DNA of 64,000 bases from a virus (IMGVR_UViG_3300040801_003393:46539-110538), one strand, 5' to 3'. Shown: positions 23,914 to 45,581, counted from the stretch's first letter. Numbers and translations: made by a program. The notes: generated by a model from the letters alone, not told the origin.

Positions 23914-23952
23914 ATAATGTAAAGGGTAATTTGCCCTTTACATTATCTTTTT
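23914..23952 (+). terminator. Rho-independent terminator ending the structural module
   Basis: ataatgtaaagggt-aattt-gccctttacattat stem-loop followed by cttttt. Confidence 0.7.
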
Positions 23953-23965
23953 AATATGTTATACT
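23937..23965 (+). promoter_or_regulatory. Sigma70-like promoter for the glycosylation/radical-SAM locus
   Basis: TTTACA-17 nt-TATACT, overlapping the 3' arm of the terminator. Confidence 0.55.
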
Positions 23966-23985: not shown

Positions 23986-24303
23986 ATGTCTAACCAAGAT
24001 TCCTTAGTTGCTCAAATCAAATATCGGTTTGATCACGAAGCAGCCAAAAAAACACTTAAAGAAAAATATGAAGCCAAAATGCTTTTTGCAGCGTTTGGCG
24101 GAATGTGGCGAGCCGGCCCAAATCTACTGTCAACACTGAACTTATTACACAGTGGCGTATCCGATGAAGCCGTGTTAGTCGACGAATATGGAAATCCCTG
24201 TAAAGTAAATGTTTTGTTGCTTAAAACTGAAGCAATGTCCCGTTGGCAGGAACAAATGAATGCCTGGTTGATAGAATTTGAAGAATTGCAAAGGCAACGA
24301 TGA
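23986..24303 (+). CDS. Hypothetical protein, first gene of the modification locus
   Basis: SD GAGGT before ATG 23986; overlaps the next gene by 4 nt. Confidence 0.7.
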   Translation: MSNQDSLVAQIKYRFDHEAAKKTLKEKYEAKMLFAAFGGMWRAGPNLLSTLNLLHSGVSDEAVLVDEYGNPCKVNVLLLKTEAMSRWQEQMNAWLIEFEELQRQR

Positions 24304-25127
24304 GCCAGGGATTCTTAATATTTGCGTTCAATAATGGAACATTTGATTATGTGAAGCAAGCATTTTGGCTTGCTGATCGTATATCACATTTCCTAAACAA
24401 ACCAGTAACTATAGTATCTGACGAAGAAAGCATCAAAGGTAAACATACCAATCATAATATAATACTAACCGTTACGGATTCGTATAGTAATAGAAGTTTT
24501 CAACAAGCAGATAATAAGAATGTATCCCGTTGGTTCAATGGTAATCGATATCAAGCCTATGAGTTAAGTCCATACGATGAGACAATAATCGTCGATAGTG
24601 ATTATGTAATTTGTTCCGATCAGTTAAATCTGTTATTTGATCAGGGCAATGATTTTTTAACACATAGATTTGTATTAGACGCTGCTTTTAAAAAAAGTTT
24701 TGATGCATTTGAAACATTCGGGCAATTACAAATGCCACACTATTGGGCAACAGTTTTGTTCTTTAGGAAATCTCAATATGCAAAAAATATTTTTGATTTA
24801 GTTTCAATGATTCGAAACAATTACAAATACTATAGTGAATTGTATAAATTCCCATCTACACCTTATCGCAATGATCATGCAGTTAGTATTGCACAAATTA
24901 TTGCAAATGGGCATAGAATAGAGTCGGTGCCAACAATAGCCTGGAGTCTTTTGACATTACCGTATGATGCAACAGTAACCCCCATAAATGATGTAACATT
25001 TGATATTTCGTATGAAAAATGGAACAGAAACAGAATGATGCCGTTGCGCAATAGAATTTCTGGAGTTGATTTTCATTGTATGAATAAGTTCGTTCTTGAG
25101 GAAATTATTGATGCCGATAAAAGATGA
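24300..25127 (+). CDS. GT-A fold glycosyltransferase-like protein (GT8-like)
   Basis: SPYDETIIVDSD (DxD) and RNDHAVSIA motifs. Confidence 0.65.
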   Translation: MSQGFLIFAFNNGTFDYVKQAFWLADRISHFLNKPVTIVSDEESIKGKHTNHNIILTVTDSYSNRSFQQADNKNVSRWFNGNRYQAYELSPYDETIIVDSDYVICSDQLNLLFDQGNDFLTHRFVLDAAFKKSFDAFETFGQLQMPHYWATVLFFRKSQYAKNIFDLVSMIRNNYKYYSELYKFPSTPYRNDHAVSIAQIIANGHRIESVPTIAWSLLTLPYDATVTPINDVTFDISYEKWNRNRMMPLRNRISGVDFHCMNKFVLEEIIDADKR

Positions 25128-25926
25128 GCGAGGATACCTAATTGTCGCCTATAATACAGGGTCGGTAGACTATGTTTCATGTGCAGAAGCTTGTGCAAAA
25201 AGTATTCGACTACATACGCCAAATGCAAAAATAGCGATACTTGGAAACGATAACATTATAACAGAAGCATCTGATGTGTTTGATTTTAAAATACCAGCCC
25301 CATATCCAGTAGGAGAAAATGGTTTCGAAGTAGATTGGCAAATTGCATGGGCAAGTCCGTTCCGCCAAACAATTAAAATCGAAGCAGATATGATAATACC
25401 TCATAGTATAGATCATTGGTGGACAATGTTAGAAAAAAAAGATGTTGTATTAACCATTGGTGCTAGAGACGTTTACGGCAACGCTTCTGATGTTAGATAT
25501 TATAGAAAAGTATTTGATGAAAACAACTTGCCTGATGTTTATAACGCAATTACATATTGGAGGTATAGTAAAACGGCAATTGACTTTTTTACATTAGTTA
25601 GAAATATTTTCCAAAATTGGAAAGAGATTCAACCAAGCATTAAGTTGGGTTTAAGTGATGTAGGCACGACTGACCTGGTATATGCAATTGCTGCTAAAAT
25701 GTTTGGAGTAGAAGAAGTTACATTGCCAAATACGTCATATCCAACACTGGTTCATATGCGTGGAAAGATTAATAATTTGATACAAGAAGATTGGACAAAA
25801 GAGTTAACATGGGAACTGGATAAATCACATATAAGAATTAACACAATCGACCAAATATATCCATTCCATTATATAGTTAAGGGGTTTAGTAAAGAATTAA
25901 ATGAGCACTACAAACAATTTTTTTGA
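25111..25926 (+). CDS. GT-A fold glycosyltransferase-like protein, paralog of the upstream gene
   Basis: GYLIVAYN..DYVSCA and SPFRQTIKIEAD (ExD) motifs. Confidence 0.6.
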   Translation: MPIKDERGYLIVAYNTGSVDYVSCAEACAKSIRLHTPNAKIAILGNDNIITEASDVFDFKIPAPYPVGENGFEVDWQIAWASPFRQTIKIEADMIIPHSIDHWWTMLEKKDVVLTIGARDVYGNASDVRYYRKVFDENNLPDVYNAITYWRYSKTAIDFFTLVRNIFQNWKEIQPSIKLGLSDVGTTDLVYAIAAKMFGVEEVTLPNTSYPTLVHMRGKINNLIQEDWTKELTWELDKSHIRINTIDQIYPFHYIVKGFSKELNEHYKQFF

Positions 25927-26245
25927 GGCGTTAAAGTTAATAGAACAACCAAAAAAGGTTGATATATTCTTTCGTTTATATTATAATGAAATTACCGGAC
26001 TTCCACTTTATTATTCAATGGAAGATCTTGAAGGACCTTACATAGAAATTTCTAAAGAAGAGTTTGCGTTAGCAGACTTCAACGTGTTTATTAAAGATGG
26101 AAAGATTAAGAAAAAGAAAATGCTTTCTATAGGGAAGTTGGTTCCAAGTAATGTGGGATATCAAGTCCATAAAGATGATATATCTATAATAGACAATACT
26201 TCAAATAGATTTTGGAATAATAAGACCTATGACGCAGACGATTGA
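25901..26245 (+). CDS. Hypothetical protein
   Basis: ORF overlapping both neighbours. Confidence 0.6.
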   Translation: MSTTNNFFEALKLIEQPKKVDIFFRLYYNEITGLPLYYSMEDLEGPYIEISKEEFALADFNVFIKDGKIKKKKMLSIGKLVPSNVGYQVHKDDISIIDNTSNRFWNNKTYDADD

Positions 26246-27170
26246 TATTGCAGACCTAGATGTTGTATTTCTGACCTATGATGAACCATTAAAGGAAGAG
26301 TTCTGGGTTAAAATTAAAAACATGGTGCCGTGGGCAGTTCGAGTCGATGGTGTTAAGGGAAGTGATGCTGCCCACAAAGCAGCGGCAGATGCAGCACAAA
26401 CAGATCGATTTATACTAATTGATGGAGATAATTTACCAGATCCAGAATTCTTTAATTTGGTATTAGAATTCCCAAATAATGAGTATAATAATGCGGTATT
26501 TCGATGGCGAGCACGGAATCATATTAACGGACTAATGTACGGCAACGGTGGAATTTCGTGCTGGACAAAAGAGTTCGTATATAATATGAAAACACACGAA
26601 GCATCTGTGGGTAACGATGAAACTGATATTGAGTTTTGCTTTGACCCGTTATATTGGCCGATGCATGATTGCTATTCCACCACCCACCCAAATCAATCTG
26701 CAATGCATGCATGGCGCGCAGGGTTTCGCGAAGGAGTAAAGATGTGCCTTAATAAAGGAGCATTGCCTACCATTGGTGAGTTTAAAGATGCAGTTCACAA
26801 GCGCAATATGGACCATTTAAGTATTTGGCATAATGTTGGCCTTGACGTTGATAATGGCGCCTGGGCAATTCTTGGAGCAAGGCAAGGTACTCGGTTAACT
26901 ATGTTTAAAGAATGGAATTATAAACAAGTACACGACTTTGATCACTTAAATACTTTGTTCATTGAGTTAACCAGTGCATTTGAACCCAATTGTGTTTTGG
27001 ATGAAATCGAACGACTAGGTGAAGAATTAGCATCGCAGTTAGATTTACCAATGTGCGTATTAACACCCAATCAAAGCAAATTCTTCAAACATCATTATCG
27101 GAGTAACTGGCGCAATCGTGGTCCAATGGTTAGAGAGATTGATGTTATTCGCGAGGAAGAAGGCTGGTGA
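26229..27170 (+). CDS. Glycosyltransferase-like protein (GT-A/GT2-like, DxD)
   Basis: LDVVFLTYDEP, FILIDGDN and AWRAGFREGVKM motifs. Confidence 0.6.
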   Translation: MTQTIDIADLDVVFLTYDEPLKEEFWVKIKNMVPWAVRVDGVKGSDAAHKAAADAAQTDRFILIDGDNLPDPEFFNLVLEFPNNEYNNAVFRWRARNHINGLMYGNGGISCWTKEFVYNMKTHEASVGNDETDIEFCFDPLYWPMHDCYSTTHPNQSAMHAWRAGFREGVKMCLNKGALPTIGEFKDAVHKRNMDHLSIWHNVGLDVDNGAWAILGARQGTRLTMFKEWNYKQVHDFDHLNTLFIELTSAFEPNCVLDEIERLGEELASQLDLPMCVLTPNQSKFFKHHYRSNWRNRGPMVREIDVIREEEGW

Positions 27171-28540
27171 ATAAATCAAAATTTTTAACTGACGCTGAGT
27201 CGATGAGGAAGAAGTTAGATAATATAAGCCCTTCTCTATGCTTAGCGAAATGGAAGCAAGTAAGTTTACATTTACCAACCGGTCTGAATAACTCGTGCTA
27301 CCACCCACCATTGCATAAAATTCCAGTAGATGAAATTCGACGCAATCCAGCTGCATTACATAACACGCCACACAAAAAAGAAATGCGCAGGCAAATGATG
27401 AATGGAGAAAGACCTGCTGAATGTTCCTATTGCTGGAATATGGAAGACAATAGAAAGTTAAGTGATCGGCATTATCGTTCAGGCGAACCGTGGGCAGCTA
27501 AGGACTTTGACGCGATTGTTGCAAACCCAGACGCAGATGTCGTTCCTTCGTATGTAGAAGTGAACTTTAACCATGCGTGCAACTTGGCGTGTTCTTACTG
27601 CTCACCTCAATTTTCATCAACTTGGATGCAACAAGCAAAATCTTTAGGAGCTTATCCAACAACTACACCTCATAATGATCCTCAGTATTTCACTGGTGAT
27701 CGTCGGCCTATTCCAAATCGTGAGGATAATCCGTATGTGGAAGCGTTTTGGAAATGGTGGCCAGATCTCTACAAAGATTTAATACATTTCCGTATGACCG
27801 GTGGTGAGCCACTTATGGATAAAAACACTTACAAGGTGTTTGACTATGTATTGGAGAACCCAAAAAAAGATTTACATTTAAATGTAACTTCTAACTTTTC
27901 TGTTGATCATGAACTGTGGTGCAAGTATTATGACTACGTCAAACACTTGTGCAACGGACAGATTGAACATTTTATGCAATATGTTTCTTTGGATTGCTTT
28001 GGCAAGCAAGCAGAGTATTTACGTGCCGGAATGGATTTTGGAACAGTTTGGCAACGAGTGCATCAATTTTTAGCAGGCATACCCGAATATAGTAGCATCA
28101 CATTTATTATTACGATGAATAATTTGTCTATCCACTCGTTTAGACAGTTGCTCGAAGGGATTTTGCAATTACGGCAATCATATAGCAGAACGTATCAACG
28201 TGTATGGTTTGACACACCTGTATTACGAACTCCCGCTTGGCAGAGTTTACAAGTATTGCCCGATCATTATGCTGATCAGTTGCAAGAAATACACGATTGG
28301 ATGTTAGAGAATCTCGAAACACCAGATAACCCTTTTAAAGGATTTAAGGATTACGAGGCACATAGACTAGACCGAGACATTGCCTGGATGCGTAATGGCA
28401 CAGATAACTTAGTGCAAAAGAAAGCAGATTTTTATCGATTTTTCTCCGAATACGATAAGCGCCATAACTATAACTTTGAAAAAACTTTTCCAGAACTTCA
28501 ACCCTTTTGGGAAGAATGTAAGTATTACGCTACCGTTTAG
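27167..28540 (+). CDS. Radical SAM protein with N-terminal Twitch/SPASM-like domain (1 of 5)
   Basis: CNLACSYC, TGGEPL; N-terminal CLAKW..SCYHP..CSYCW. Confidence 0.9.
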   Translation: MNKSKFLTDAESMRKKLDNISPSLCLAKWKQVSLHLPTGLNNSCYHPPLHKIPVDEIRRNPAALHNTPHKKEMRRQMMNGERPAECSYCWNMEDNRKLSDRHYRSGEPWAAKDFDAIVANPDADVVPSYVEVNFNHACNLACSYCSPQFSSTWMQQAKSLGAYPTTTPHNDPQYFTGDRRPIPNREDNPYVEAFWKWWPDLYKDLIHFRMTGGEPLMDKNTYKVFDYVLENPKKDLHLNVTSNFSVDHELWCKYYDYVKHLCNGQIEHFMQYVSLDCFGKQAEYLRAGMDFGTVWQRVHQFLAGIPEYSSITFIITMNNLSIHSFRQLLEGILQLRQSYSRTYQRVWFDTPVLRTPAWQSLQVLPDHYADQLQEIHDWMLENLETPDNPFKGFKDYEAHRLDRDIAWMRNGTDNLVQKKADFYRFFSEYDKRHNYNFEKTFPELQPFWEECKYYATV

Positions 28541-28577
28541 TAAATACAAAAACCACATAAAATAAAGGGAGAAAACA

Positions 28578-28838
28578 ATGGTAGATGTAGTGACGTCCGC
28601 GAACGAAGAATTGTACCGCCGAGCATTTGCAATTATGCAAAATCACACAATGGAATGTATTGAAGAAACAGTTACAGATATGGCACAATTACTGGCAAAA
28701 GTTTGCTGTGCATTTGGTGTACCGCAAGACGAAATACTAAATCAAATTACTATAGAACAATTCGACTATCATTTAAGAAAAATACTTGACAGCAAGGATT
28801 GTATGTGCAATAATAATTCGCATGACTCTAAGAAATAA
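28578..28838 (+). CDS. Hypothetical protein inserted in the radical SAM array
   Basis: Has its own TAAATA (~28541) and SD GGGAG. Confidence 0.6.
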   Translation: MVDVVTSANEELYRRAFAIMQNHTMECIEETVTDMAQLLAKVCCAFGVPQDEILNQITIEQFDYHLRKILDSKDCMCNNNSHDSKK

Positions 28839-30180
28839 AACTCGAGAAACTGATTTACAAATAAAACAACACCTGGATAGTTTTAGCCCGTCACTGTGCC
28901 TGGCAAAATGGTATAACGCCACTATATGGCTCGGTAGCGGACAAACCACTTCATGCCATCACCCACCCGCACACCAAATTAGTGTTAGCGACATTGGGCG
29001 CAATCCAAAAGCAATACATAATACCAAAGAGAAGAAAGAGCAGCGGTCCCAAATGTTGCGTGGTGAAAGGCCAGCCGGATGTGATTATTGTTGGAAGATA
29101 GAAGACATCGACTCGGAAAAGATTTCAGACCGTGTTTATAAGTCAGTCATTTATAACGACGATGATTTAGAATTTGCGGTGGGACAGAATCCAAACAATG
29201 ACTTTGACCTTAAAACCCTAGAAATTGCCTTTGACCGAACTTGTAATTTTGCATGTTCATATTGTAATCCTGCTTTTTCGTCTGAATGGGTTAAAGATAT
29301 AAAGAATAATGGGCCCTATTCCAATTTGAAATCCGATGGGAGAAATCACTTTACTCACGCACATGATTCGGCCCAGCCGTTTAAATTAGATGAAGAGAAT
29401 CCTTATGTTGAGGCATTCTTTAAATGGTGGGAAAGTGATTTGCATAAAACTCTATTTGAGTTAAGATTAACTGGTGGCGAGCCTTTGATGTCTCCATATA
29501 CATGGAGATTATTTGATTGGTTTATACAACATAAGTCAAAAATGCGGTTTGCAATCAATAGCAACCTAGGAGCAAAAGATTCCTTAATTGATAAGTTGAT
29601 AGAAACATCACACGCTATTGAGGACTTCCATCTTTATACTTCAAACGAGAGTATGTATGAACATGCAGAGTATATTCGTGACGGGTTAATTTGGGATCAA
29701 TGGGATAAAAACGTTAATAGGATAATAGAAGAAGGCAACATTAAAGGGTTCCATATGATGTGTACCATTAACGCATTATGTTTAGAATCGTTGCCAGACT
29801 TCCTAGATTATCTATTAGACCTTAAACGAAAGTATGGAAAAGATTTCCCAACGTTTACGTTAAATATTTTACGATTCCCTAGTTTCCAGAGTCCATTGGT
29901 ACTTCCGTTGGAGTTGCGTGGGTTTTTTCGTAAAAGATTGTACGATTGGTTAGTGGCTAATCAAAATAATGATCTACTTCATCAAATGGAAATTAATCAA
30001 GTTAATAGACTAATAGACTATTTAGATGTTGTAAAAACACCGCACAACAATGTATTCGATATAGAATCATTATTGCATAATGACTTTTATCATTTCTATA
30101 AGCAATATGATGAGCGCCGCCGCAAGAATTTTACAGAAACATTCTCTCAAATAGCATCCTGGTACCGGAGTTTAAAATGA
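28822..30180 (+). CDS. Radical SAM protein with N-terminal Twitch/SPASM-like domain (2 of 5)
   Basis: CNFACSYC, TGGEPL; CLAKW..SCHHP..CDYCW. Confidence 0.9.
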   Translation: MTLRNKTRETDLQIKQHLDSFSPSLCLAKWYNATIWLGSGQTTSCHHPPAHQISVSDIGRNPKAIHNTKEKKEQRSQMLRGERPAGCDYCWKIEDIDSEKISDRVYKSVIYNDDDLEFAVGQNPNNDFDLKTLEIAFDRTCNFACSYCNPAFSSEWVKDIKNNGPYSNLKSDGRNHFTHAHDSAQPFKLDEENPYVEAFFKWWESDLHKTLFELRLTGGEPLMSPYTWRLFDWFIQHKSKMRFAINSNLGAKDSLIDKLIETSHAIEDFHLYTSNESMYEHAEYIRDGLIWDQWDKNVNRIIEEGNIKGFHMMCTINALCLESLPDFLDYLLDLKRKYGKDFPTFTLNILRFPSFQSPLVLPLELRGFFRKRLYDWLVANQNNDLLHQMEINQVNRLIDYLDVVKTPHNNVFDIESLLHNDFYHFYKQYDERRRKNFTETFSQIASWYRSLK

Positions 30181-31841
30181 ATTTAAAAGAAATTCTATCT
30201 AAGATAGAAACAGAATACGATGTGATTACAATTATTGAACTAAATCAATGGCGCGAGTTGCCTTTTTATAAACGAGAATCCTGGTTAAAGAAAGCGTTAT
30301 ACCAAGCAAGGAAAGATGTTTATCAAAATAAAGAAAGAATTGTGCTGACGTTAACGGTTGATTACCAGGCAGATTTAATTTTAGAAATTGTAGAGCGTCT
30401 TATATTTGAAATTGATATTAGTGATTTTTTTGTTACATTCATTACTAATCTTAATCTATCCAGCGACCGAATTTCAATAATTAGGTGTGATAACCCAGTT
30501 ATAACTGTCGTTGATGGCGATGATGTAGAAATGAAATTGATTAAAAAACTTTCCCCGGGATATATTTCCATCGCACCAGAAAAAAGAGATATATCTACAT
30601 TGACTAATTCACAGGCAAATTTACTTTTAGAAAGTGAGACATTTTGTATGTATCCTTGGATACATTTACATGCATACCCAACAGGCGAAGCCTGGCCATG
30701 TTGTCATGCTGAGAGATCTCCAGGAGAACTTGGTTCCTGTCGGGAACAATCACTTCAGGAATTGTGGAATAGTCCGAAACAAAAGCAGCTAAGAAAAGAC
30801 ATGTTAGCCGGGGTCCCAAATAGTTATTGTATTCGTTGTTATGAACGGGAAAAAAGTGGATTTTTTTCTGGCAGGCAATGTGCCAATAAACACCACGGTC
30901 ACCATATAAATCGAGTTGATCATACAAAAGAGGACGGGCATTTAGATCAATTCGAAATGACATATTGGGATATTCGTTTTTCTAATTTGTGTAATCTTAA
31001 ATGTCGCTCATGCGGACATATATTTTCATCTACTTGGTATCAAGATCAAGTTGCATTGGCCGGACCGGATTGGGGCAAGAAAAATAAACCGTTACAAATT
31101 GCTGGACGTTACGAAGGAGATTTATTCCAGCAACTATTAGAACATGTTGATCGTGTTGAACAAATATATTTTGCAGGTGGTGAACCATTGATGATGGAAG
31201 AGCATTACGCTATATTAGATGAACTTGAAAAGCGTAATATGTTCCATGTTCGGTTAATTTACAATACAAATTTTACAAAAACAAAATTTAAGGATAGAGA
31301 GGTTTTTGATTATTGGCGTAAGTTTAAGTCAGTGTCGGTCGGCGCAAGTTTAGACGCAATGGGTCCGAGAGCAGAGTACATACGATCTGGAACTAAGTGG
31401 GAAACAATAGAATCCAATCGCAAGCGAATGATGGAAATTTGCCCTGAGGTAGACTTCTATGTTAGTGCTACTCTTAGTATCATGAACGCATTGCATTTGC
31501 CCGATTTCCATCGCGAATGGGTAGATAAAGGTTTTATTAGAGGACAAGACTTTAATGTTAATATTCTTCAGGATCCGGCATTTTATCGAATCGATATTGC
31601 GCCTCAAGAAATGAAGAAAGAAATCGAACACCGATATATAGAACACCTACTTTGGCTCAAGGGGCAAGATCACATTGAGCGTGCAACCAATGGATTTGAA
31701 AGTGCTATTAGATATATGAATGCAACAGATAACTCATACCTAATAGGTAAATTTTGGGAGAGAACTCTGCAATTAGATGAACTGCGCAATGAATGTATAT
31801 ATGATTATATTCCTGAGTTGAAGAGGTTACACAATGACTGA
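30177..31841 (+). CDS. Radical SAM protein with extra N-terminal domain plus Twitch/SPASM-like domain (3 of 5)
   Basis: CNLKCRSC, AGGEPL, YNTN; CMYPW..PCC..CIRC. Confidence 0.9.
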   Translation: MNLKEILSKIETEYDVITIIELNQWRELPFYKRESWLKKALYQARKDVYQNKERIVLTLTVDYQADLILEIVERLIFEIDISDFFVTFITNLNLSSDRISIIRCDNPVITVVDGDDVEMKLIKKLSPGYISIAPEKRDISTLTNSQANLLLESETFCMYPWIHLHAYPTGEAWPCCHAERSPGELGSCREQSLQELWNSPKQKQLRKDMLAGVPNSYCIRCYEREKSGFFSGRQCANKHHGHHINRVDHTKEDGHLDQFEMTYWDIRFSNLCNLKCRSCGHIFSSTWYQDQVALAGPDWGKKNKPLQIAGRYEGDLFQQLLEHVDRVEQIYFAGGEPLMMEEHYAILDELEKRNMFHVRLIYNTNFTKTKFKDREVFDYWRKFKSVSVGASLDAMGPRAEYIRSGTKWETIESNRKRMMEICPEVDFYVSATLSIMNALHLPDFHREWVDKGFIRGQDFNVNILQDPAFYRIDIAPQEMKKEIEHRYIEHLLWLKGQDHIERATNGFESAIRYMNATDNSYLIGKFWERTLQLDELRNECIYDYIPELKRLHND

Positions 31842-33411
31842 GTATCGACGATTAGCCACAATAAATGCCAATGAATTTAGGTCAAAGTTCGAACTTATTA
31901 AAGAACTAAAAAAATATTATAAAGAAGAATATCAAAATGACGAAAGAATAGTTGTTAACATCAATGAAACATTTAATAATAGCATCTACGGTGACCATCT
32001 TTCGATGTTACAACTTGCATTGAATGATATTGATATATCAAACTTTTTTATTCTAGTTAATAGTAATGATAACAATATTAAAGAACATGTTAAGTGGGTT
32101 ACTGATAACCTGAGTTACGATACAGTTTCTGTGCAAATTTCAGAAACCAACAATGATAGATACCAGGCAACAAGATCCCAATTAAAAACCAGATATCCTC
32201 AATTAAATATCCCAACTGAGTCTTTTTGTGTGTTGCCATGGATTAGTCTTGAAGCCGGGCCAATTGGCACGGTTCGTCCTTGTTGCTTAACAGACGACGA
32301 AATAAAAGACGAGTACGACCAACCTTATACGTTAACAGAAAATTCACTGAGCGAAATACATAATTCAGAGTGGATGCAAATTTTACGTTCAGAATTTCTT
32401 CAGGGTAAGAAGCCAACGACTTGTCGAAAGTGCTGGGACACAGAAGCCGCAGGTATTAAAAGCAAGAGACAACATATGCAAGACCGGTTAAAGGAGATCC
32501 TGGCTACGGAAATAAAATGGACAGAAGATGCAAAATCACTAATGTTTCTTGATTTAAAACTTGGAAATATCTGCAACTTAAAGTGCCGTATTTGCGGAAG
32601 TTGGTCTAGTTCAACTTTTGCTACAGAAGAATTAGAACAAGTTAAAAGTAAGAAAGATAGTTGGCATTATGTAATGCTATCGCAAGGACGCTGGCCGCGT
32701 ACATCGCCACACTTTTGGGAAGACCTATATAAGATGAGTTCAGACTTGCGGTATATTGAATTTACCGGTGGTGAACCATTTATGATTAAAGAGCACTTTG
32801 CATATTTGCAATACCTAGTCGACCAGGGTTTTGCACAAAACATCGAAATACATTATAACACAAATGGAACACAGTGGCCAGAAGAGCATATACACTTATG
32901 GAAACATTTTAAGTTAGTTGAAATTGCTTTCTCAATTGACAATATTGGAATTCGATTCGAATACGAAAGAACAAATGCTACGTGGCCGGAGGTTGTTTAT
33001 AACCTAAAACATTTCTTTGAACTGCGTAACAAAAACAAAAATATTCAGTTGCAATTATGTACAACCATTAATATTTATAATGTTTTGTACTTAGAAAGCA
33101 TCTGCCATTGGGAATTTTTTGATAAGTTTGATTTTGTTTATTGGAATATGTTACATAATAGCCCAGAAAATTGCATTCAAGCGTTGCCGCCTTCAGTGAA
33201 GTCCGCTGTGGCTGCAACACTACGTCGCGCGAAGGTTGACGAAAAAACTCGTCAAGAGTTTGATAAAGTCATTGAATTCATGAATAGATCAAACGGTGTG
33301 TTTCCTAAAGCAGTTACAGATCGAATCGACGAATTAGATGAGAGAAGAGACCATAGTTTGCGTTCTACTCATCCCGAATTATATAGGCTCTTATATGAAG
33401 AGGCCAACTAA
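31834..33411 (+). CDS. Radical SAM protein with extra N-terminal domain plus Twitch/SPASM-like domain (4 of 5)
   Basis: CNLKCRIC, TGGEPF, YNTNG; CVLPW..PCC..CRKC. Confidence 0.9.
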   Translation: MTEYRRLATINANEFRSKFELIKELKKYYKEEYQNDERIVVNINETFNNSIYGDHLSMLQLALNDIDISNFFILVNSNDNNIKEHVKWVTDNLSYDTVSVQISETNNDRYQATRSQLKTRYPQLNIPTESFCVLPWISLEAGPIGTVRPCCLTDDEIKDEYDQPYTLTENSLSEIHNSEWMQILRSEFLQGKKPTTCRKCWDTEAAGIKSKRQHMQDRLKEILATEIKWTEDAKSLMFLDLKLGNICNLKCRICGSWSSSTFATEELEQVKSKKDSWHYVMLSQGRWPRTSPHFWEDLYKMSSDLRYIEFTGGEPFMIKEHFAYLQYLVDQGFAQNIEIHYNTNGTQWPEEHIHLWKHFKLVEIAFSIDNIGIRFEYERTNATWPEVVYNLKHFFELRNKNKNIQLQLCTTINIYNVLYLESICHWEFFDKFDFVYWNMLHNSPENCIQALPPSVKSAVAATLRRAKVDEKTRQEFDKVIEFMNRSNGVFPKAVTDRIDELDERRDHSLRSTHPELYRLLYEEAN

Positions 33412-34723
33412 TAAACCAGATAATTTGTGTATGGCTCCTTGGACCCATACATATCTTTCTCCGCAAACAGAACGACGAATGTGTTGTGCAAGTAGAGAAC
33501 CAGCACAGAACTTTGAGCAGTACATTGATACTGCCGCAGGGTCTGGCCAGTATGAACCATTAACTCTTGAAGAGCACTGGAATGGTGATCATATGCGTTC
33601 AGTACGTCGACGTATGATGTACGGAGAAATATTGCCAGAGTGTGAGGTATGCAATCATAAGTTATTAAACACTGATGTTTACCGTGATTACTTCTGGCAT
33701 CTATTTAAACACAAGTATGATGACATATGGGACTTAACCGACGAGTCGGGCTATACAGAGATGGAACCGATTAGTTGGGACTATAGATTTTCAAACTTGT
33801 GTAACTTTGCATGTATGCAATGTGGTGATATGCTAAGTTCGCAATGGGAAGCGGAAGAGCGCAAACATGATATGATTAACTGGCACGATTCTAAAAATAA
33901 TTGGATGAAGCCAGAGATACGTTCTCAAATTAAAGACTTTCAAGTAACACAAATCAACGAAGAATTTTCCAAAGCAGTTGAAGAACATCGAGTAGAAGAA
34001 ATATACTGGGTTGGTGGTGAGCCGTTGATGATGGAAGAACACTGGCGGTATATGAAACGTATTGTTGACTTAAATGACGGCGGAAGAGTTTATGCAAGAT
34101 ACAATACAAACTTGTCGAGAGTAGAGTACAAAGGAGTACATTTGTATCGAGATATATTACCATATATTCGTGACTGGCAAATATGTGCAAGCATTGATGG
34201 GTTAGGCGAAATAGGCGAGTATATACGTTACGGGTTAAGCGAATCGGTATTTTTAGACAATTACTATGCAGGACTGGAGATTGCAAAGAACCCTCGCAAC
34301 ATGCGGTTGGATTTTACTTTAACCCTGCCAGGATTATTTTGCATGAAGGATATGTTTAATTTAAGTAAAGAAACAAATACAACCTTATTGTCAAAAGTAA
34401 CATTTGCGTTTAGCCCAGACATTATGATGTCACCACTTATGTTACCACGTACAATACTAGAACGAATAGTTAAAGAGTTCTTAACATGGGCAGATAATGA
34501 GGGCTGGGATAATAATCAACGCCCATTAATTGATGTATTGCAAAACTTATTAAATCGTCCTACGTTTGAGGAACGGTGGCCAGAACAATTTAGAGAAGGC
34601 CAAGTTAAAGGTAAAAATCGTACTAAACGGATCGAGTCGATTAGGTTGCAATCTTGCACCTTAGAAGATATACTTAGAACAGAGGACACGGAAGCATATG
34701 AATGGTACAAAAGTATTGCTTGA
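33395..34723 (+). CDS. Radical SAM protein with N-terminal Twitch/SPASM-like domain (5 of 5)
   Basis: CNFACMQC, VGGEPL, YNTN; CMAPW..MCC..CEVC. Confidence 0.9.
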   Translation: MKRPTNKPDNLCMAPWTHTYLSPQTERRMCCASREPAQNFEQYIDTAAGSGQYEPLTLEEHWNGDHMRSVRRRMMYGEILPECEVCNHKLLNTDVYRDYFWHLFKHKYDDIWDLTDESGYTEMEPISWDYRFSNLCNFACMQCGDMLSSQWEAEERKHDMINWHDSKNNWMKPEIRSQIKDFQVTQINEEFSKAVEEHRVEEIYWVGGEPLMMEEHWRYMKRIVDLNDGGRVYARYNTNLSRVEYKGVHLYRDILPYIRDWQICASIDGLGEIGEYIRYGLSESVFLDNYYAGLEIAKNPRNMRLDFTLTLPGLFCMKDMFNLSKETNTTLLSKVTFAFSPDIMMSPLMLPRTILERIVKEFLTWADNEGWDNNQRPLIDVLQNLLNRPTFEERWPEQFREGQVKGKNRTKRIESIRLQSCTLEDILRTEDTEAYEWYKSIA

Positions 34724-35801
34724 TGAGATTGAAATTCAATTAAGAAACATCGATACTGGGCACTTACATACAATTTACATTGATGTATTTGATACCTCGC
34801 TATCGAGAAAATGGTATGCAGCATTAAACGGGTTATTAGAAAATAAGAATCACCTGGAAAAGAATTATTGCTTCATGGGTTTTGCTGATTATGCTCGCAA
34901 TGGCGAGTATATACTAAACAAAGTTAACGAGTCTATTGCTGCTATTAATGAGGCAGACTTAGGATACGTCATAAACGATAACTTTACAATGGACAATTCG
35001 CTTGAAAGCGGAGAAGTCGGGCCTAACCTCCCAGGACGAAAAATTATACACGACAAGTTTAATTGGCTCCATCGATACTTTGAAGACCTTCAAGGAACGT
35101 TTGGCCACGGCGGTAGCGGTTCATCATTTTATAACCGTGCTGATCCCAAAACAAAATGGCATATACGTCAACTTAATTTGCTTTGTCACGAATTTGAAAG
35201 TTGGGCACTATCGTATAGAAAAGTAATTGAAGCGCCCGAGTGGCAACGTCCATCGACATTAATGTGTTGGATAAATGCTCCGCGCTTTGAATTAACAGAA
35301 GAAGATTATGAAAGTTTTGGAATTGAAACATTAAATCGTCCGTATGGTGGTGTACACGTTGGTGTAAATAAAGCAGTCGGAAAGCACCACTGGGAGGTTT
35401 TTGTTGACGAGGGCGATGCATATGATCGATCCAAGGATGAAACCGTAACCTCAGTATTACGACCGCAATCACAAGCCGCTGGAGACTTTGATATTGAGTG
35501 GGGAAAAGGTGTTGCTGAATTTAGTTTCCATAAAGAAAAAATAGAAAAGTTTCAGCAATGGCTTATTAAAAACGGATGGGATCCAGAAGATAAAAGTTTA
35601 ACAATTGGACATCCACAAGTAGGACAAGTTAATTTGATTAAATCGTTTGGTACCAGTGATCCTGCTACCGGCTGGGAAATTTTAAATAATCACCTAGATG
35701 TTTACTCGGTTCATACTAGTGAAGCAAGAGCGGAGTATCCATACCATTGGTCCGATAAGGATTATATGGAGCAACAAGTAAAGGCATTAGGAGGCAGGTA
35801 A
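34698..35801 (+). CDS. Hypothetical protein (367 aa) in the modification locus
   Basis: Long ORF overlapping both neighbours; FNWLHRYFE and LNLLCHEFE helices. Confidence 0.75.
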   Translation: MNGTKVLLDEIEIQLRNIDTGHLHTIYIDVFDTSLSRKWYAALNGLLENKNHLEKNYCFMGFADYARNGEYILNKVNESIAAINEADLGYVINDNFTMDNSLESGEVGPNLPGRKIIHDKFNWLHRYFEDLQGTFGHGGSGSSFYNRADPKTKWHIRQLNLLCHEFESWALSYRKVIEAPEWQRPSTLMCWINAPRFELTEEDYESFGIETLNRPYGGVHVGVNKAVGKHHWEVFVDEGDAYDRSKDETVTSVLRPQSQAAGDFDIEWGKGVAEFSFHKEKIEKFQQWLIKNGWDPEDKSLTIGHPQVGQVNLIKSFGTSDPATGWEILNNHLDVYSVHTSEARAEYPYHWSDKDYMEQQVKALGGR

Positions 35802-35905
35802 TGTTTAATTGGATAAAAAGAATAATTAATAAAATTAAACTAGAAGTTCGTTATCGAAAAAAGATGAAAGAACTAAAAAAGAAAGACCCGTTTATCTATA
35901 AATGA
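35801..35905 (+). CDS. 34-aa basic peptide absent from the ORF track (MFNWIKRIINKIKLEVRYRKKMKELKKKDPFIYK)
   Basis: SD AGGAGG; start overlaps the upstream stop and its stop overlaps the carbamoyltransferase ATG. Confidence 0.65.
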   Translation: MFNWIKRIINKIKLEVRYRKKMKELKKKDPFIYK

Positions 35906-37419
35906 AAAATATATTAGGAATATCGGCTGGATTCCATGACGCAGGGCTTTCAGTAATAAGTCCGGCCGGCGACATTTTGTTTGCAAGTCACGCCGAGAGA
36001 TTTTCAAAGAAAAAACATGACGCTGAAATGTGTACGCATATGGTAAATTATGCAATGCAGTTTGGCGAAGTTGATACGATTGCATATTATGAAAGGCCAT
36101 GGTTAAAAAACTTAAGAATGGTCAGGTCAGGCCAAGGGGCTGATTCGCCATGGCAATTAAAAAATGTATTAAATAAACATTTGTTTTTTCATCCAAAGTT
36201 AGTCAACAATGCAAATTTAAAGGCATTCGGTCATCATCTATCACACGCAGCAGCAGGCTTTCAAACCTCGCCGTTTGATGATGCCACTGTGCTTGTTATT
36301 GATGCAATTGGTGAGTTTGATACAGTTAGTGTTTGGAATGCATGGTACGATAAAAAAGGTAATGCACAATACAAACTGCGGTGGAGGATGAAGTACCCAG
36401 ATTCTATTGGTATGTTTTATTCGGCTATGACTAAGTTCGTGGGATTACGCCCAATGGACGAAGAGTACATTTTAATGGGTATGGCTGCATACGGAAAAAA
36501 TATCGAAGTAGTTGGAAAGATGGCTGATCGCTTTTTAGCAGTACCAGACCCATCACATGAGCCATTCACTTTTAAGGATAATTTACATATCGGAGTTGAC
36601 ACCGACTGGATACAAAAAGAACATATCTCTGATTTTGATATTGCTATGGCCACCCAAGAAATATTAGAATGGCAATTACATCGAATCATGCTGAAGAGTA
36701 TGCAATATCGGAACTCTGGAAATTTAGTTTATATGGGTGGTGTAGCATTAAACTGTTTAGCAAATAGAGCCCTCGGACGATACTATAAAGATGTCTGGAT
36801 TATGCCAAACCCAGGCGATGCTGGTTCAAGTTTAGGTGCAGCAGCCCTAGCCTATAAAAAGAAACTTAACTGGAAAGATGCATATCTCGGTTATAACATC
36901 GAGGGCGAGTATCCAGTTAAACCTATAATTGATGAATTGATAGTTAATAAGATTGTTGGTGTAGCAAATGGTCGAGCCGAGTTTGGGCCAAGAGCATTAG
37001 GCAATAGATCTTTACTGGCAGATCCACGCGGCCACGATATTAAAGACAAAGTTAATGAAATTAAACGCAGGCAACAATTCCGCCCATTTGCTCCAGTCAT
37101 ACTTGAAGAACATGTGCGTGAATATTTCAATATGCCAACCGGGTTTAATACATCACCGTATATGCAAGTCGTTGCCAAGTGTAAGCGCCCAGATGAGTTT
37201 CCAGCGATCATACATGCCGACGGTACTAGTCGAGTACAAACGGTTGCTAATGATGGTTCCGGCATAAGAAAATTATTAGAAGCCTGGAAAGTTTATACCG
37301 GCTGTCCTATGCTACTAAACACATCACTGAACATTCGTGGCGAACCAATGGTTAATGATGTTAGTGACGCAAAACGATTTGAAGATTTGTATAAAGTAAA
37401 GGTTTTTACAAGTGTTTGA
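35902..37419 (+). CDS. Carbamoyltransferase, NodU/CmcH family
   Basis: ILGISAGFHD, HHLSHAA, GGVALN, GDAGSSLGA, EFGPRALGNRSLL, RPFAP and LNTSLN motifs. Confidence 0.95.
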   Translation: MKNILGISAGFHDAGLSVISPAGDILFASHAERFSKKKHDAEMCTHMVNYAMQFGEVDTIAYYERPWLKNLRMVRSGQGADSPWQLKNVLNKHLFFHPKLVNNANLKAFGHHLSHAAAGFQTSPFDDATVLVIDAIGEFDTVSVWNAWYDKKGNAQYKLRWRMKYPDSIGMFYSAMTKFVGLRPMDEEYILMGMAAYGKNIEVVGKMADRFLAVPDPSHEPFTFKDNLHIGVDTDWIQKEHISDFDIAMATQEILEWQLHRIMLKSMQYRNSGNLVYMGGVALNCLANRALGRYYKDVWIMPNPGDAGSSLGAAALAYKKKLNWKDAYLGYNIEGEYPVKPIIDELIVNKIVGVANGRAEFGPRALGNRSLLADPRGHDIKDKVNEIKRRQQFRPFAPVILEEHVREYFNMPTGFNTSPYMQVVAKCKRPDEFPAIIHADGTSRVQTVANDGSGIRKLLEAWKVYTGCPMLLNTSLNIRGEPMVNDVSDAKRFEDLYKVKVFTSV

Positions 37420-39040
37420 CATTTTTTACATCCACAATCCACCACACGGAAGACTTGCTAGCATTGCTAAGCAGGTAGAAACAATAGCAGATGCCCGATC
37501 AGCGGCAAAAACCCGTTACTGTTGGGTTGTGGATGGCTTTAATAATTACGATGATTTTGATTTTCTATGGGAACCAAAACCCTGGGAAGCCAATCGAGAT
37601 CACGTATGGCCGTCACAGCATCAACAGCATGGCGGAACAATGTTGCTAACAAAAGATTGGGGAGGGGATACAAACTATAACCATCCTGTTGTTCCCCGCG
37701 TAACTGCACCCAACATCATTTATTTAGACATAGGCAATTCTGAATCAGACGAACAATACGACATACTTCAAAAGCAGTTTAACATAGTTAAGACGCGGTT
37801 TATAGCAGATTACCACGGTACGCTAAAACGTGTTATTAGTAAGATTGAAGAACCATATGTTTGGGTTATTGGTTCTGTTTGTGACTACGAAGAGTTTGAT
37901 TTTACTTGGCACCCAAGCGAATGGCAAAGAGATATGTTGCATGTATTTCCGTCGAGCGAACAAAAGTTTGGAGATACGTTTTATATCCCAGTACAAAAAT
38001 TCAAAGAAAACCCAGGAGAACTATTAGAATGGTTTGACACAATCTGTTTCCAAGATCAAACCGTACCTCGATTTGCCCCGCCTATTGTTTACAAGTCAAA
38101 GACCGATACAATTGCTGAGTTAGCTAAGTCAGCAAAGTTCAATGGACCAATTGGTGTATTAACAACTGATCCAACTCTGCAAATGTATCCTGAAGTAGTC
38201 CCGGCAATTAATCTTTGGAGGAAAGAAACAAGAACGATCGTTCCAATAACAAAGAGTCATTCTATTGCAGTATTTCCTCGTGATGCTTTAGCAGATGTTA
38301 AACATGAAGTCTATGATTACCCCTACATTGATAAATCGCTAGAAAACAAATACGGTGAGCCACCGCTTGATGTAGTATTTTTAAGCAACGGCGAAACAAA
38401 TGCCGAAGAAAATTTAGCATACCTCAAAGAACATTTGCCAGAGAAAATGACATTACATGAAGTGTCTGGTATCAATGGTCGTGTTGCAGCATATCAAGCA
38501 TGTGCTGAGGCGGCCAACACTGACTGGTTGTTTATTGTTTGGGGTAAGTTAAAGATCAATAAACATTTTGATTGGTCTTGGCAGCCAGATCGGTTCCAGC
38601 AAGCAAAGCATTATATCTTCTATGCTCGCAACCCAGTAACTAATTTAGTTTATGGACACATGGGAATGGCTGCGTACAATAAACGATTAACATTAAAGAA
38701 CGATGGTAGCGGCTTAGATTTTATCATGTCCCAACCGCATGAGGTTGTACCGTTATTGTCTGGTACAGCCGAGTATGCCCATAATCCGTGGATGGCCTGG
38801 CGCACCTCATTTCGAGAGGTGTTGAAGTTAAAAAGTTTTGAGAAAACCGATGCCAAAGCAGCCACTCGACTTAACAGTTGGATGACCGTTGGCGATGGAG
38901 AATTTGGACAGTGGTCTTTGTTGGGCGCTAAAGACGGAATTGATTATTACAAGTCAGTTAATGGTAACTTTGAAAGTCTGAAATTGAGTTATGAGTGGGC
39001 CTGGCTTCGCGAACGATTTGACAAACTTTATCCTGGATAA
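37412..39040 (+). CDS. Multi-repeat glycosyltransferase-like protein
   Basis: C-terminal domain parallels 26229..27170 (LDVVFLS.., AWRTSFREVLKL); three related internal repeats. Confidence 0.6.
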   Translation: MFDIFYIHNPPHGRLASIAKQVETIADARSAAKTRYCWVVDGFNNYDDFDFLWEPKPWEANRDHVWPSQHQQHGGTMLLTKDWGGDTNYNHPVVPRVTAPNIIYLDIGNSESDEQYDILQKQFNIVKTRFIADYHGTLKRVISKIEEPYVWVIGSVCDYEEFDFTWHPSEWQRDMLHVFPSSEQKFGDTFYIPVQKFKENPGELLEWFDTICFQDQTVPRFAPPIVYKSKTDTIAELAKSAKFNGPIGVLTTDPTLQMYPEVVPAINLWRKETRTIVPITKSHSIAVFPRDALADVKHEVYDYPYIDKSLENKYGEPPLDVVFLSNGETNAEENLAYLKEHLPEKMTLHEVSGINGRVAAYQACAEAANTDWLFIVWGKLKINKHFDWSWQPDRFQQAKHYIFYARNPVTNLVYGHMGMAAYNKRLTLKNDGSGLDFIMSQPHEVVPLLSGTAEYAHNPWMAWRTSFREVLKLKSFEKTDAKAATRLNSWMTVGDGEFGQWSLLGAKDGIDYYKSVNGNFESLKLSYEWAWLRERFDKLYPG

Positions 39041-40055
39041 ACTCAACTTCCTCGAGCGTAAGTTCAGGATAAAACGGCAATGAGATACTACACTTAGATA
39101 GTCGTGTACTAGTATCGCCGCCATAGTAGGGTAGCGCAGCAAATAACCCAACGGTATGTAACGGATTGGAGTAATGAACTCTGGCTTCAATGCCGTTGCG
39201 ATACAATTCGTTTAATACATAATCACGATTATCAACTTGTATAACAAATTTATGCAATGCATGCTTGTTGATGTTATCTAGAGTAATCATTGTCTTAATG
39301 TTATTTGCATTAAATGCATCTATCCATTTTAATGCAATTTGTTTTCTAGCCGCTTGCCACTGGTCAAGGTATTTTGTTTTTACCATGAGCATAGCACAAT
39401 CCATTTCGTTCATACGCGAGTTTGACCCAGGCATTAAATGCACATATCTCTTCCCGTGCGCTCGGTAATTTAGTGCATACTCGTATAGTTCATCGTCGTT
39501 AGTAACAATAGCACCACCGTTGCCGTAGTTTGGAAGGTTCTTAGTCGGATCAAAACTTATAGCGGTAGTAGTTGACATGCGATGACAGTTGTTGCTAAGC
39601 CAATGCTGAGCACCATCTTCAACCAAACATCCTTGATTTAATCGGTCAGGCAATGCAATACCGTGCAAGCCAACACCAACTATAATGTCAAAAGCATGTT
39701 GCTCGGGAGGTAGAATAACACCATCCTCATCGCAATCGGCCAAACAAATATCCCAACCAGCAGTGACAAAGGCATTGATAGTAGCAGGGAATGTATAAGA
39801 TGGCAATAGAGCATACTTGCCATTCTCTTTATAGTAACGAGCAATAATTTCTAGAGCATTTGTACCGCTGCCGCAAGTAACAGCATACGGCATTTGATTT
39901 TTTATAGCCAACCAATCTTCAAACTGCTCAGTATACGGACCATCAAGCAGTCGTCCAGTTTCGGCTACTGTGGCATACGCAGTCATTAGTTCTTCTTTGT
40001 GTAAAAGAAACTGCCGACTAAGGTTGTTAAATGGAATTTGTTTTGAGCCAGTCAT
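38958..40055 (-). CDS. DegT/DnrJ/EryC1/StrS PLP-dependent NDP-sugar aminotransferase
   Basis: SGTNAL, TFPAT, VEDGAQ, SFDPTKNL..GNGGAIVT and NSRM motifs. Confidence 0.92.
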   Translation of the reverse strand: MTGSKQIPFNNLSRQFLLHKEELMTAYATVAETGRLLDGPYTEQFEDWLAIKNQMPYAVTCGSGTNALEIIARYYKENGKYALLPSYTFPATINAFVTAGWDICLADCDEDGVILPPEQHAFDIIVGVGLHGIALPDRLNQGCLVEDGAQHWLSNNCHRMSTTTAISFDPTKNLPNYGNGGAIVTNDDELYEYALNYRAHGKRYVHLMPGSNSRMNEMDCAMLMVKTKYLDQWQAARKQIALKWIDAFNANNIKTMITLDNINKHALHKFVIQVDNRDYVLNELYRNGIEARVHYSNPLHTVGLFAALPYYGGDTSTRLSKCSISLPFYPELTLEEVEFIQDKVCQIVREARPTHNSISDFQSYH

Positions 40056-40965
40056 AGTATAAAGTTAACCCTTTTTCTAGAGGGGTGCCGTCGGGCAACC
40101 CAAGATGTTCTTTAGCAGAAGCAATATTTAGACCACCACGCTTAGGGTAGGATGCATCGCGAGGATTGATTTTAATATGTCCTGCACCGACCAACTCAAT
40201 AATAGTTTCGGCTGCATGCAATAACGTTTGTGGATGCCCGCTTGTTACATTAAATGTTCCTGGAACTCTTCTGGTTGCAGCCTGAACGATGCCTTGAGTA
40301 ATATCGTCAATATAAGTGAAGTCTAGTGTTTCGCCAGCACCACAAACATTCAATTCTTTGTTTTCTATTGCTGACTTGAAGAAAAGACTTATTACCCGTT
40401 CAGTAACATCCATTGGGCCATACACTGCACTAGGACGAATAACCGTTACTGTACCACCAGAGGTCTCTGCCCAGAGTCTACATAACTGCTCTCCAGCCAG
40501 TTTATAGATACCATATGCGGAGGTAGGGTTGCACGGATCGTTTTCAGTCGGAGGCTCCGCAGGAAAGTCACCATACACCATTGAACTACTGATATAAACA
40601 AAGTGAGAAGCAATACCGCGACAAGCCGATAGTACATTATGCAACCCAACGGTCATTGTACTGATGCCCTGCTCGGGATATTGACTAACCAGTGCCGCTC
40701 TTGGATAGGCAGCTAAATGTATAACAACATCTGGTTTTATTCTTTTAATTGCTGCTGATACTTTGTCTCGATCGCTAATATGAATTGAGTAAACATTTTT
40801 CAAATCGTTGCCAAGTCGTAGCTGCAAAAGTTTTTGATATTTTGACGACGGCATGATATTGTAGCAATCGAAGTTATCAATGATGTTTACTTTATTATTG
40901 TGTTTTAACTGATTAAAAACATGGGAGCCAATAAACCCAGCACCGCCAACTAATAGGTATTTCAT
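40027..40965 (-). CDS. NAD-dependent NDP-sugar epimerase/dehydratase (extended SDR)
   Basis: GGAGFIGSH, SSSMVYG, YGIYK (YxxxK) and DFTYIDD motifs. Confidence 0.92.
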   Translation of the reverse strand: MKYLLVGGAGFIGSHVFNQLKHNNKVNIIDNFDCYNIMPSSKYQKLLQLRLGNDLKNVYSIHISDRDKVSAAIKRIKPDVVIHLAAYPRAALVSQYPEQGISTMTVGLHNVLSACRGIASHFVYISSSMVYGDFPAEPPTENDPCNPTSAYGIYKLAGEQLCRLWAETSGGTVTVIRPSAVYGPMDVTERVISLFFKSAIENKELNVCGAGETLDFTYIDDITQGIVQAATRRVPGTFNVTSGHPQTLLHAAETIIELVGAGHIKINPRDASYPKRGGLNIASAKEHLGLPDGTPLEKGLTLYYDWLKTNSI

Positions 40966-45528: not shown

Positions 45529-45552
45529 CACGTTCTCCTATTTAATATGCAT

Positions 45553-45581
45553 ATTATACTGGGTTGCCACCCAAAAGTCAA
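45553..45581 (-). promoter_or_regulatory. Sigma70-type early promoter
   Basis: TTGACT-17-TATAAT. Confidence 0.8.

Follow-up and report, generated by a model that had tools for sequence, protein, structure and literature searches.

Cassettes that join GT8-type glycosyltransferases to radical S-adenosylmethionine (SAM) enzymes have been described in passing from the fibre-linked 'host recognition clusters' of pelagimyophages (PMC7029224), and a phage carbamoyltransferase of the NodU type makes 5-carbamoyloxymethylcytosine (PMC8670742). We analysed a block of genes, called the cassette here, at positions 23986-40965 of a 64,000-nucleotide (nt) stretch of viral DNA (IMGVR_UViG_3300040801_003393:46539-110538), in which genes for radical SAM enzymes, glycosyltransferase-like proteins, an O-carbamoyltransferase and amino-sugar synthesis lie together. 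This stretch, referred to as the window, makes up the final 64 kb of a 110.5-kb IMG/VR contig, for which CheckV estimates ~31% completeness. A preliminary description of the DNA had stated that no characterised phage pathway has such a composition; we too found none in the literature, and no functional or biochemical study of jumbo phages with radical SAM and carbamoyltransferase genes was found.

On balance, we read the cassette as an operon with its own promoter, whose soluble cytoplasmic enzymes would build and chemically edit a sugar-containing decoration. Co-oriented genes fill 23986-39040 on the plus strand in the order o115, o275, o276, o114, o313, rS1, rS2, rS3, rS4, rS5, o367, p34, carbamoyltransferase and o542, with neighbours either overlapping by 1-26 nt or abutting, and a 280-nt gap between rS1 and rS2 as the sole exception. 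On the minus strand, genes for a DegT aminotransferase (38958-40055) and a short-chain dehydrogenase/reductase (SDR; 40027-40965) converge tail to tail on this run. The overlapping run, its start at 23986 and the head-on pair had all been noted in the preliminary description and were found again here, as was the position directly behind the tail genes: baseplate hub and wedge genes, a gene for a 4516-amino-acid (aa) protein and genes for three fibre-like proteins lie 5' of the cassette. One of the fibre-like proteins has an intramolecular-chaperone (Peptidase_G2) end, and one contains 23% Ser+Thr. In its baseplate wedge protein the contig shares 34-35% identity with Rak2-like jumbo myophages, among them Atu_ph07, GAP32 and CBB, and a nucleotide search with the cassette against isolated phages gave no match. 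A Kyte-Doolittle scan of the block proteins detected no hydrophobic 19-residue stretch above 1.4, and all of them are therefore predicted to be soluble.

The run contains five radical SAM genes:

27167..28540, plus strand: rS1, NF033640 score 321 bits, CxxxCxxC motif at residue 138.
28822..30180, plus strand: rS2, NF033640 score 310 bits.
30177..31841, plus strand: rS3, NF033640 score 405 bits, with an extra N-terminal extension of ~150 aa.
31834..33411, plus strand: rS4, NF033640 score 332 bits, with an extra N-terminal extension of ~150 aa.
33338..34723, plus strand: rS5, NF033640 score 271 bits.

All five exceed the curated cut-off (170 bits) of NF033640, the NCBIfam model N_Twi_rSAM, over the full length of the model, and each carries one CxxxCxxC motif. 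In rS3, rS4 and rS5 a Pfam SPASM domain precedes Radical_SAM, and the earlier recognition of five twitch-first radical SAM proteins is borne out by these scores. A sixth copy upstream on the contig reaches 250 bits, also above the cut-off. Four Cys residues that precede the CxxxCxxC motif (C-x18-C-x41-C-x2-C) are invariant in all six copies, which fits one fully ligated auxiliary cluster, i.e. a twitch domain; GGEP, the GGE-type SAM-binding motif, is invariant in the copies together with a few other residues. We take the spacing of the twitch Cys residues to be similar to that of BtrN, and BtrN-type models gave no significant sequence match to rS1-rS5.

The paralogues rS1-rS5 are mutually 20-35% identical while orthologues in relatives share 45-70%, indicating that the five are old, distinct and non-redundant. 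In five relatives with complete or nearly complete genomes (337-357 kb), 6-11 copies per genome exceed the NF033640 cut-off, and none of 14 control cellular genomes contained the family. Neighbours in the ESM Atlas were 88-100% viral; the viral clusters were returned unnamed or generically named, and a cluster look-up gave no names. A query with rS3 only against genome contigs found no match, and an alignment of all radical SAM paralogues was too divergent for use. The sixth N-twitch copy lies outside the window (G000:C1:33244-41067, locus L147), where it forms a trio with two further radical SAM proteins, one a classical radical SAM-SPASM protein and the other of 300 aa, interleaved with PDDEXK nuclease and SbcCD-like genes. 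It has the ~150-aa N-terminal extension in common with rS3 and rS4.

Sugar transfer would fall to some of the following proteins:

24300..25127, plus strand: o275, predicted GT-A fold glycosyltransferase, nearest to retaining GT8, GT6 and GT24 enzymes, with an invariant D99-x-D101.
25096..25926, plus strand: o276, paralogue of o275 (BLASTP E 1e-6), in which a conserved E97-x-D99 replaces the DxD.
26229..27170, plus strand: o313, with the highest conservation in the cassette (mean column identity 70%) and a weak likeness to GT2 around an invariant DGD.
37412..39040, plus strand: o542, with three degenerate FDFxWxP repeats and a C-terminal o313-like domain.

The AlphaFold2 model of o275 (predicted local distance difference test, pLDDT, 92) gave 379 matches at E <= 0.001 in a Foldseek search of the PDB. 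The top hits listed were all GT-A transferases (E ~1e-6), with GlyE, UGGT, ABO transferases, glycogenin and LgtC as the top structural matches, and o275 as modelled is a GT-A fold protein. Membership of o276 in this fold would follow from its paralogy with o275 only. Matches of o313 to Pfam GT2 (16.6-17.5 bits) were below the cut-offs, with weak matches in 11 of 25 family members, and at least 8000 metagenomic relatives of o313 were found, all unnamed. o542 is related to o313 through its C-terminal domain (hhalign, 99.5%), which has no DGD or DxD; o542 is probably non-catalytic because the DxD is lost. Of the four proteins earlier called GT-A-like, o275 can keep this label by its predicted fold and o276 as its paralogue, but o313 has the sub-threshold GT2 match and o542 lacks the DGD. 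Single-sequence and profile searches with o275, o313, o367 and o542 against PDB sequences gave nothing credible.

The remaining genes towards the 3' end encode the candidate tailoring and sugar-supply functions, and o367:

34698..35801, plus strand: o367, found in phages only; as a weak fold lead, its model suggests a cyclophilin-like barrel into which a helical bundle is inserted.
35801..35905, plus strand: p34, basic 34-aa micropeptide, overlapping the o367 stop codon and the carbamoyltransferase start codon.
35902..37419, plus strand: O-carbamoyltransferase of the NodU/CmcH/TobZ family (PHROG 1601), with conserved catalytic-region motifs.
38958..40055, minus strand: DegT/DnrJ/EryC1 sugar aminotransferase (Pfam E 2e-55, 188.8 bits), with a conserved SFxPxK lysine motif.
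40027..40965, minus strand: extended SDR of the NDP-sugar epimerase/oxidoreductase type (NDP, nucleoside diphosphate; Pfam E 3e-41), with GxxGxxG, SSSMVYG and YxxxK.

The carbamoyltransferase has both Carbam_trans_N and Carbam_trans_C above the Pfam cut-offs (131 and 172 bits), in line with its earlier naming as a NodU/CmcH enzyme; against the NodU equivalog it scored 131 bits (cut-off 1000), so that the assignment is one of family membership only. No equivalog cut-off was reached by DegT. RmlB-type dehydratases have an acidic pair (Asp-Glu) after the catalytic Ser/Thr. The SDR was considered as an RmlB-type 4,6-dehydratase and rejected, since its SSSMVYG lacks the acidic pair and its score against the dTDP-glucose dehydratase (RmlB-type) equivalog was 120 bits, below the cut-off of 365. 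Of the earlier 'epimerase/dehydratase' label the SDR family therefore stands and the RmlB-type dehydratase does not; by its motifs the enzyme looks more like an epimerase or oxidoreductase. The o367 model (pLDDT 87) had no match in a Foldseek search of the PDB; its VIA match to cyclophilins was marginal (Z 9.7), and ten viral look-alikes in BFVD are all uncharacterised, one being from Atu_ph07.

p34 is present in 102 of 106 carbamoyltransferase-bearing loci. Across its 87 sequence variants the C-terminal DPFIY(K) is invariant, and the peptide is more conserved than the cassette enzymes. It also occurs in Ralstonia phage RsoM2USA, in loci L057 and L021, and beside the carbamoyltransferase on the contig of a gammaproteobacterial metagenome-assembled genome (MAG; L160). 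The RsoM2USA homologue (MG752970; L006:13014-13136) is an unannotated open reading frame (ORF) that ends in DPFIYK and lies between two DUF6071 genes. Pfam holds no match to p34, and kinship with SxtK/DUF5989 could not be shown. Since p34 is absent from radical SAM arrays that lack a carbamoyltransferase (K566, L024 and the Bdellovibrionota loci), it tracks the carbamoyltransferase and not the radical SAMs. It was not found at the cyanophage and pelagiphage carbamoyltransferase loci examined (P-RSM4, Mosig), which lack the N-twitch radical SAM family.

These features raise the prospect of a peptide-centred pathway, in which p34 would be the substrate or scaffold in the manner of a ribosomally synthesised and post-translationally modified peptide, mycofactocin or a carrier peptide, with its DPFIY(K) end modified by the twitch radical SAMs and then glycosylated and carbamoylated. 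SPASM/twitch radical SAM enzymes commonly act on peptides, and a GT2 enzyme ends mycofactocin maturation. The conservation of p34 beyond that of the enzymes, with the invariant motif at the C-terminal end, would suit such a role, as would its company with the carbamoyltransferase and N-twitch radical SAM pairing in distant phages and on a bacterial MAG contig and its absence from P-RSM4 and Mosig; the extra N-terminal domain of rS3 and rS4 could bind a peptide. However, p34 is missing from the arrays without carbamoyltransferase, no peptidase or leader-recognition domain was identified, and SxtI-type carbamoyltransferases are likewise accompanied by small ORFs without assigned function (PMC2885083), which suggests that p34 is an accessory subunit. 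We therefore regard a peptide-centred pathway as improbable.

In the sugar-building pathway that we favour, SDR and DegT would convert a host NDP-sugar to an NDP-amino sugar, and o275, o276 and probably o313 would transfer sugars to the acceptor. rS1-rS5, each with its SAM cluster and one four-Cys auxiliary cluster, would then make radical edits at sugar carbons, with oxidation, epimerisation, dehydration and C-C chemistry as candidates on the model of BtrN-type enzymes, and the carbamoyltransferase with its 34-aa peptide would O-carbamoylate a hydroxyl. We infer all of these reactions, their order and their target. The enzyme set fits the self-contained, soluble sugar-building and tailoring pathway that had been proposed for the block.

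Relatives of rS2 were found on more than 595 viral contigs and relatives of o542 on 59. The order fibre genes, cassette, DegT and SDR, MoxR was kept in the 139 loci examined (30-70% identity), and the recurrence of gene order in ~139 viral loci excludes chance; co-occurrence in relatives, which had been put forward as a check, is supported. Two small genes of the run differ in their spread:

23986..24303, plus strand: o115, a conserved protein that opens the operon and has ~105 aa when read from the ATG at 23986, with orthologues in 51 loci.
25901..26245, plus strand: o114, small protein of a subclade only (33 loci).

o115 matched nothing in Pfam or PHROG. One to three DUF6071-like (SGNH-like) genes lie between o367 and p34 in many relatives, with none in the studied contig. 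Canonical ThyA and DHFR genes (41258-42603, minus strand) stand between SDR and the conserved downstream genes of the window; as only ~10 of 59 related loci have the pair, we consider it a variable insert and not a part of the cassette.

Parts of the cassette recur elsewhere. RsoM2USA carries an rS2 orthologue (54% identity), three DUF6071 genes, p34 and the carbamoyltransferase (46%), with a DNA ligase adjoining, and in both RsoM2USA and L057 the radical SAM and carbamoyltransferase module lies beside DNA ligase and not tail genes. The DUF6071 proteins of RsoM2USA showed no relation to o275 or o367 by hhalign. In Vibrio phage K566, two Pfam-significant GT8 genes and one GT4-like gene are interspersed among four members of the family, and arrays of six or seven copies occur on other viral contigs, one near an Asp/Asn hydroxylase and one near a carbamoyltransferase and DNA ligase. 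In cellular assemblies the family is found mainly in Bdellovibrionota MAGs, and the rS1/rS2 subfamily also in bacterial MAGs. Three cellular loci are on contigs of 0.9-3.3 Mb, namely Bdellovibrionota L155 and L167 (0.9 and 3.3 Mb) and gammaproteobacterial L160 (2.6 Mb). The Bdellovibrionota contigs put members of this mostly viral family in chromosomes of predatory bacteria. The 3.3-Mb Bdellovibrionaceae contig has three copies beside a 1059-aa GT2-like protein, and on L160 integrase-like ORFs flank a radical SAM gene, the carbamoyltransferase, p34, a DUF6071 homologue and a GT-B-like gene. The link of N-twitch radical SAM with glycosyltransferase thus recurs independently in K566 and on the Bdellovibrionaceae contig, and RsoM2USA and the gammaproteobacterial contig both have the set of radical SAM, p34 and carbamoyltransferase. 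Two further loci from MAGs labelled Haliscomenobacter (L150) and Neomarinimicrobiota (L163) contain fibre genes and the whole cassette in phage order, and look like jumbo-phage contigs mis-binned into bacterial MAGs.

A glycosyltransferase, an esterase-like protein and an O-carbamoyltransferase make up the usual toolkit for polysaccharide decoration (NodU/NolO, TobZ). Because the radical SAMs recur with glycosyltransferases, esterase-like proteins and an O-carbamoyltransferase, and the cassette adds the amino-sugar pair, the building and tailoring of a glycan fits best. We further propose, tentatively, that the N-twitch radical SAMs, almost all of them phage-borne, perform new radical chemistry on a glycoconjugate, that the DPFIY(K) micropeptide is a dedicated partner or scaffold of the carbamoyltransferase, and that the product class is a phage-made, radically edited and carbamoylated glycan or glycopeptide.

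Transcription signals lie between the fibre genes and the cassette, and one variable segment lies within it:

23914..23946, plus strand: terminator-like hairpin (15-base-pair stem and T-run) that closes the fibre-gene unit.
23937..23965, plus strand: sigma70-like promoter, TTTACA-17-(TG)TATACT, with a GAGG ribosome-binding site between it and the ATG at 23986.
28578..28838, plus strand: variable gap between rS1 and rS2, where some relatives have an extra radical SAM gene.

The hairpin and the promoter overlap directly 3' of the last fibre gene, and this hairpin-then-promoter layout is also seen upstream of the first gene in relatives. Sigma70 matches of at least 10/12 were present in 17 of 48 orthologous upstream regions; for most internal genes the rate is 0-5%, and for o367 it is 10%. 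Upstream of the cassette there is no T4 late-promoter motif TATAAATA, and the structural genes of the window have ATAAATAA-like motifs instead of the sigma70 type. The MoxR-like and vWA genes each follow a near-consensus TTGAC(T/A)-17-TATAAT, which is of the same type as the cassette promoter. With a hairpin and an early-type promoter in between, the cassette is its own unit and not an extension of the fibre operon, and its promoter motifs suggest that it may be expressed early. p34 and the terminator with its promoter are features beyond the preliminary description. Within the rS1/rS2 gap, a strong promoter-like TTGACA-17-AATAAT with an upstream TG (28786-28814, plus strand) lies 8 nt before the likely start of rS2. 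A Cys-rich 86-aa ORF in the gap was considered as a precursor peptide and rejected, as it was conserved in none of 139 loci.

Several observations weigh against a sugar-building pathway. No nucleotidyltransferase, acceptor-priming enzyme or flippase is encoded in the block, and, because the SDR lacks the dehydratase residues, it offers DegT no clear route to a keto-sugar. The role of o313 and o542 as glycosyltransferases is putative: hhalign profiles of o313 and o275 showed no similarity, and the o313 profile had no match among PDB sequences. No relative of the cassette GT-like proteins was detected within 10 kb of divergent phage radical SAM arrays, and two Bdellovibrionia copies lie among murB, folD, gcvH and purT-like housekeeping genes with no sugar enzymes nearby. 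A search of the literature on N-terminal twitch enzymes found no functional study and no NF033640 member with a known reaction, and SPASM/twitch enzymes act on peptides as often as on sugars. The suggested early timing, finally, is read from promoter motifs only.

The preliminary description had favoured virion proteins as the target of the decoration. Adjacency to the fibre genes, the sole argument for this target, holds across the clade, but the terminator and early-type promoter in between, here and in relatives, and the DNA ligase neighbours in RsoM2USA and L057 weaken it. We regard phage fibre or virion proteins as a possible acceptor, a host envelope glycan as a less probable one, and any other acceptor as doubtful. 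The second of these would imply that soluble enzymes made early alter an inner-leaflet lipopolysaccharide (LPS) core or a capsule precursor, and not virions, which, if true, could block superinfection or keep progeny from sticking to debris. Such editing of the host surface is consistent with the early-like, sigma70-type promoter, the terminator that parts the cassette from the fibre genes, and the cellular homologues on chromosome-sized MAG contigs. The fold of o275 is nearest to GT8-type enzymes that include the LPS-core transferase LgtC, the module is not linked to tail genes in other phages, and modification of the O-chain has been proposed for the analogous pelagimyophage islands (PMC7029224). 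However, the block contains no membrane-spanning protein, flippase, polymerase or undecaprenyl-phosphate transferase, and its place next to the fibre genes is conserved across the clade; we therefore consider editing of the host surface unlikely.

Phage DNA had been mentioned as another target, in which case the carbamoyltransferase and glycosyltransferases would decorate the hydroxymethyl-pyrimidines of hypermodified DNA. A published phage carbamoyltransferase that acts on 5-hydroxymethylcytosine (5hmC) is of the same family (PMC8670742), the cassette has an early-type promoter, a ThyA gene lies 4 kb away, and DNA ligase adjoins the module in RsoM2USA and L057. The ThyA is, however, canonical: it scores above the equivalog cut-off, retains PCH, His147 and the Asn in PFNIAS, and comes with a DHFR gene. 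It is the sole member of the thymidylate-synthase family in the 110-kb contig, occurs in 10 of 59 neighbouring loci, and a thymidylate-synthase homologue is absent from three of the five complete relatives. No Tet/JBP match was obtained in the five complete relatives, in a search whose own control was silent, and carbamoyltransferases flanked by glycosyltransferases occur on unmodified contigs (PMC8670742). As no hydroxymethylase of the thymidylate-synthase family accompanies the cassette, carbamoylated 5hmC DNA is disfavoured, and we consider DNA hypermodification very unlikely.

Two neighbouring regions of the window were also noted. The 4516-aa protein is encoded by a single ORF (6304-19854, plus strand) between the baseplate wedge and fibre genes; Cys is nearly absent from it and Ser+Thr are even at ~15%, and it is probably the giant VrlC-like structural protein of the clade. 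The MoxR-like AAA+ and vWA genes (44233-47283, minus strand) have a G+C content of 0.49, compared to 0.35-0.40 for the cassette.

Single cassette proteins have thousands of metagenomic relatives, which marks the cassette as a large, uncharacterised commitment by jumbo phages that are common in the environment. It is a source of at least five putative radical SAM reactions, from a family that has been catalogued but not studied, and of a conserved micropeptide linked to a carbamoyltransferase, and may be a new way for phages to decorate their own particles or their hosts. If the tentative proposal of new radical chemistry with a dedicated micropeptide is correct, the product would be a new class of phage-made glycan or glycopeptide, made by jumbo phages that as a group rank among the most abundant in aquatic habitats. 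The question is directly testable, since cultured phages carry the sub-module (RsoM2USA and Vibrio phages K566 and K567) or an analogous island (Mosig).

Several described systems share features with the cassette. The five cassette enzymes and the sixth copy share with NF033640 the twitch domain before the radical SAM core; the family has only been catalogued, and the cassette differs in its 6-11 copies per genome, the five ancient paralogues in one operon and the extension of rS3 and rS4. One fully Cys-ligated auxiliary cluster, a DegT aminotransferase and a co-located TobZ/NodU-type carbamoyltransferase are in common with BtrN and aminoglycoside pathways, from which the cassette departs in its twitch-first order, its GT-A rather than GT-B enzymes, its phage origin and its lack of aminocyclitol genes. 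The 5hmC carbamoyltransferase (PMC8670742) is phage-encoded and of the same two-domain Pfam family, but co-occurs with MazG-like and deaminase genes and with a thymidylate-synthase homologue that has Asp at E. coli position 177, whereas the cassette loci have either a canonical ThyA or none, and glycosyltransferases and radical SAMs as neighbours. Soluble glycosyltransferases and an SDR/DegT pair near structural genes are also found in the mimivirus fibril cluster, in chlorovirus capsid glycan synthesis and in mycobacteriophage virion glycosylation. These systems have no radical SAM, carbamoyltransferase or micropeptide, and the cassette, whose virion target is putative, has its own early-type promoter. 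Also similar in composition are the pelagimyophage and cyanomyophage clusters (PMC7029224) and an island beside VrlC in the cultured SAR11 phage Mosig (Pelagibacter phage; MT647606, 60-74 kb; L172), which encodes three MoaA-like radical SAMs, an ArnB-like aminotransferase, a carbamoyltransferase, a methyltransferase, an epimerase, nitroreductase-like proteins and an Asp/Arg hydroxylase. Like the cassette, they are fibre-linked, lie beside a giant structural protein and combine GT8-type, radical SAM, aminotransferase, epimerase and carbamoyltransferase genes. The Mosig radical SAMs gave no match to N-twitch profiles, and p34 was not found there. The pelagimyophage and cyanomyophage islands are hypervariable, whereas the cassette is strictly syntenic across its clade.

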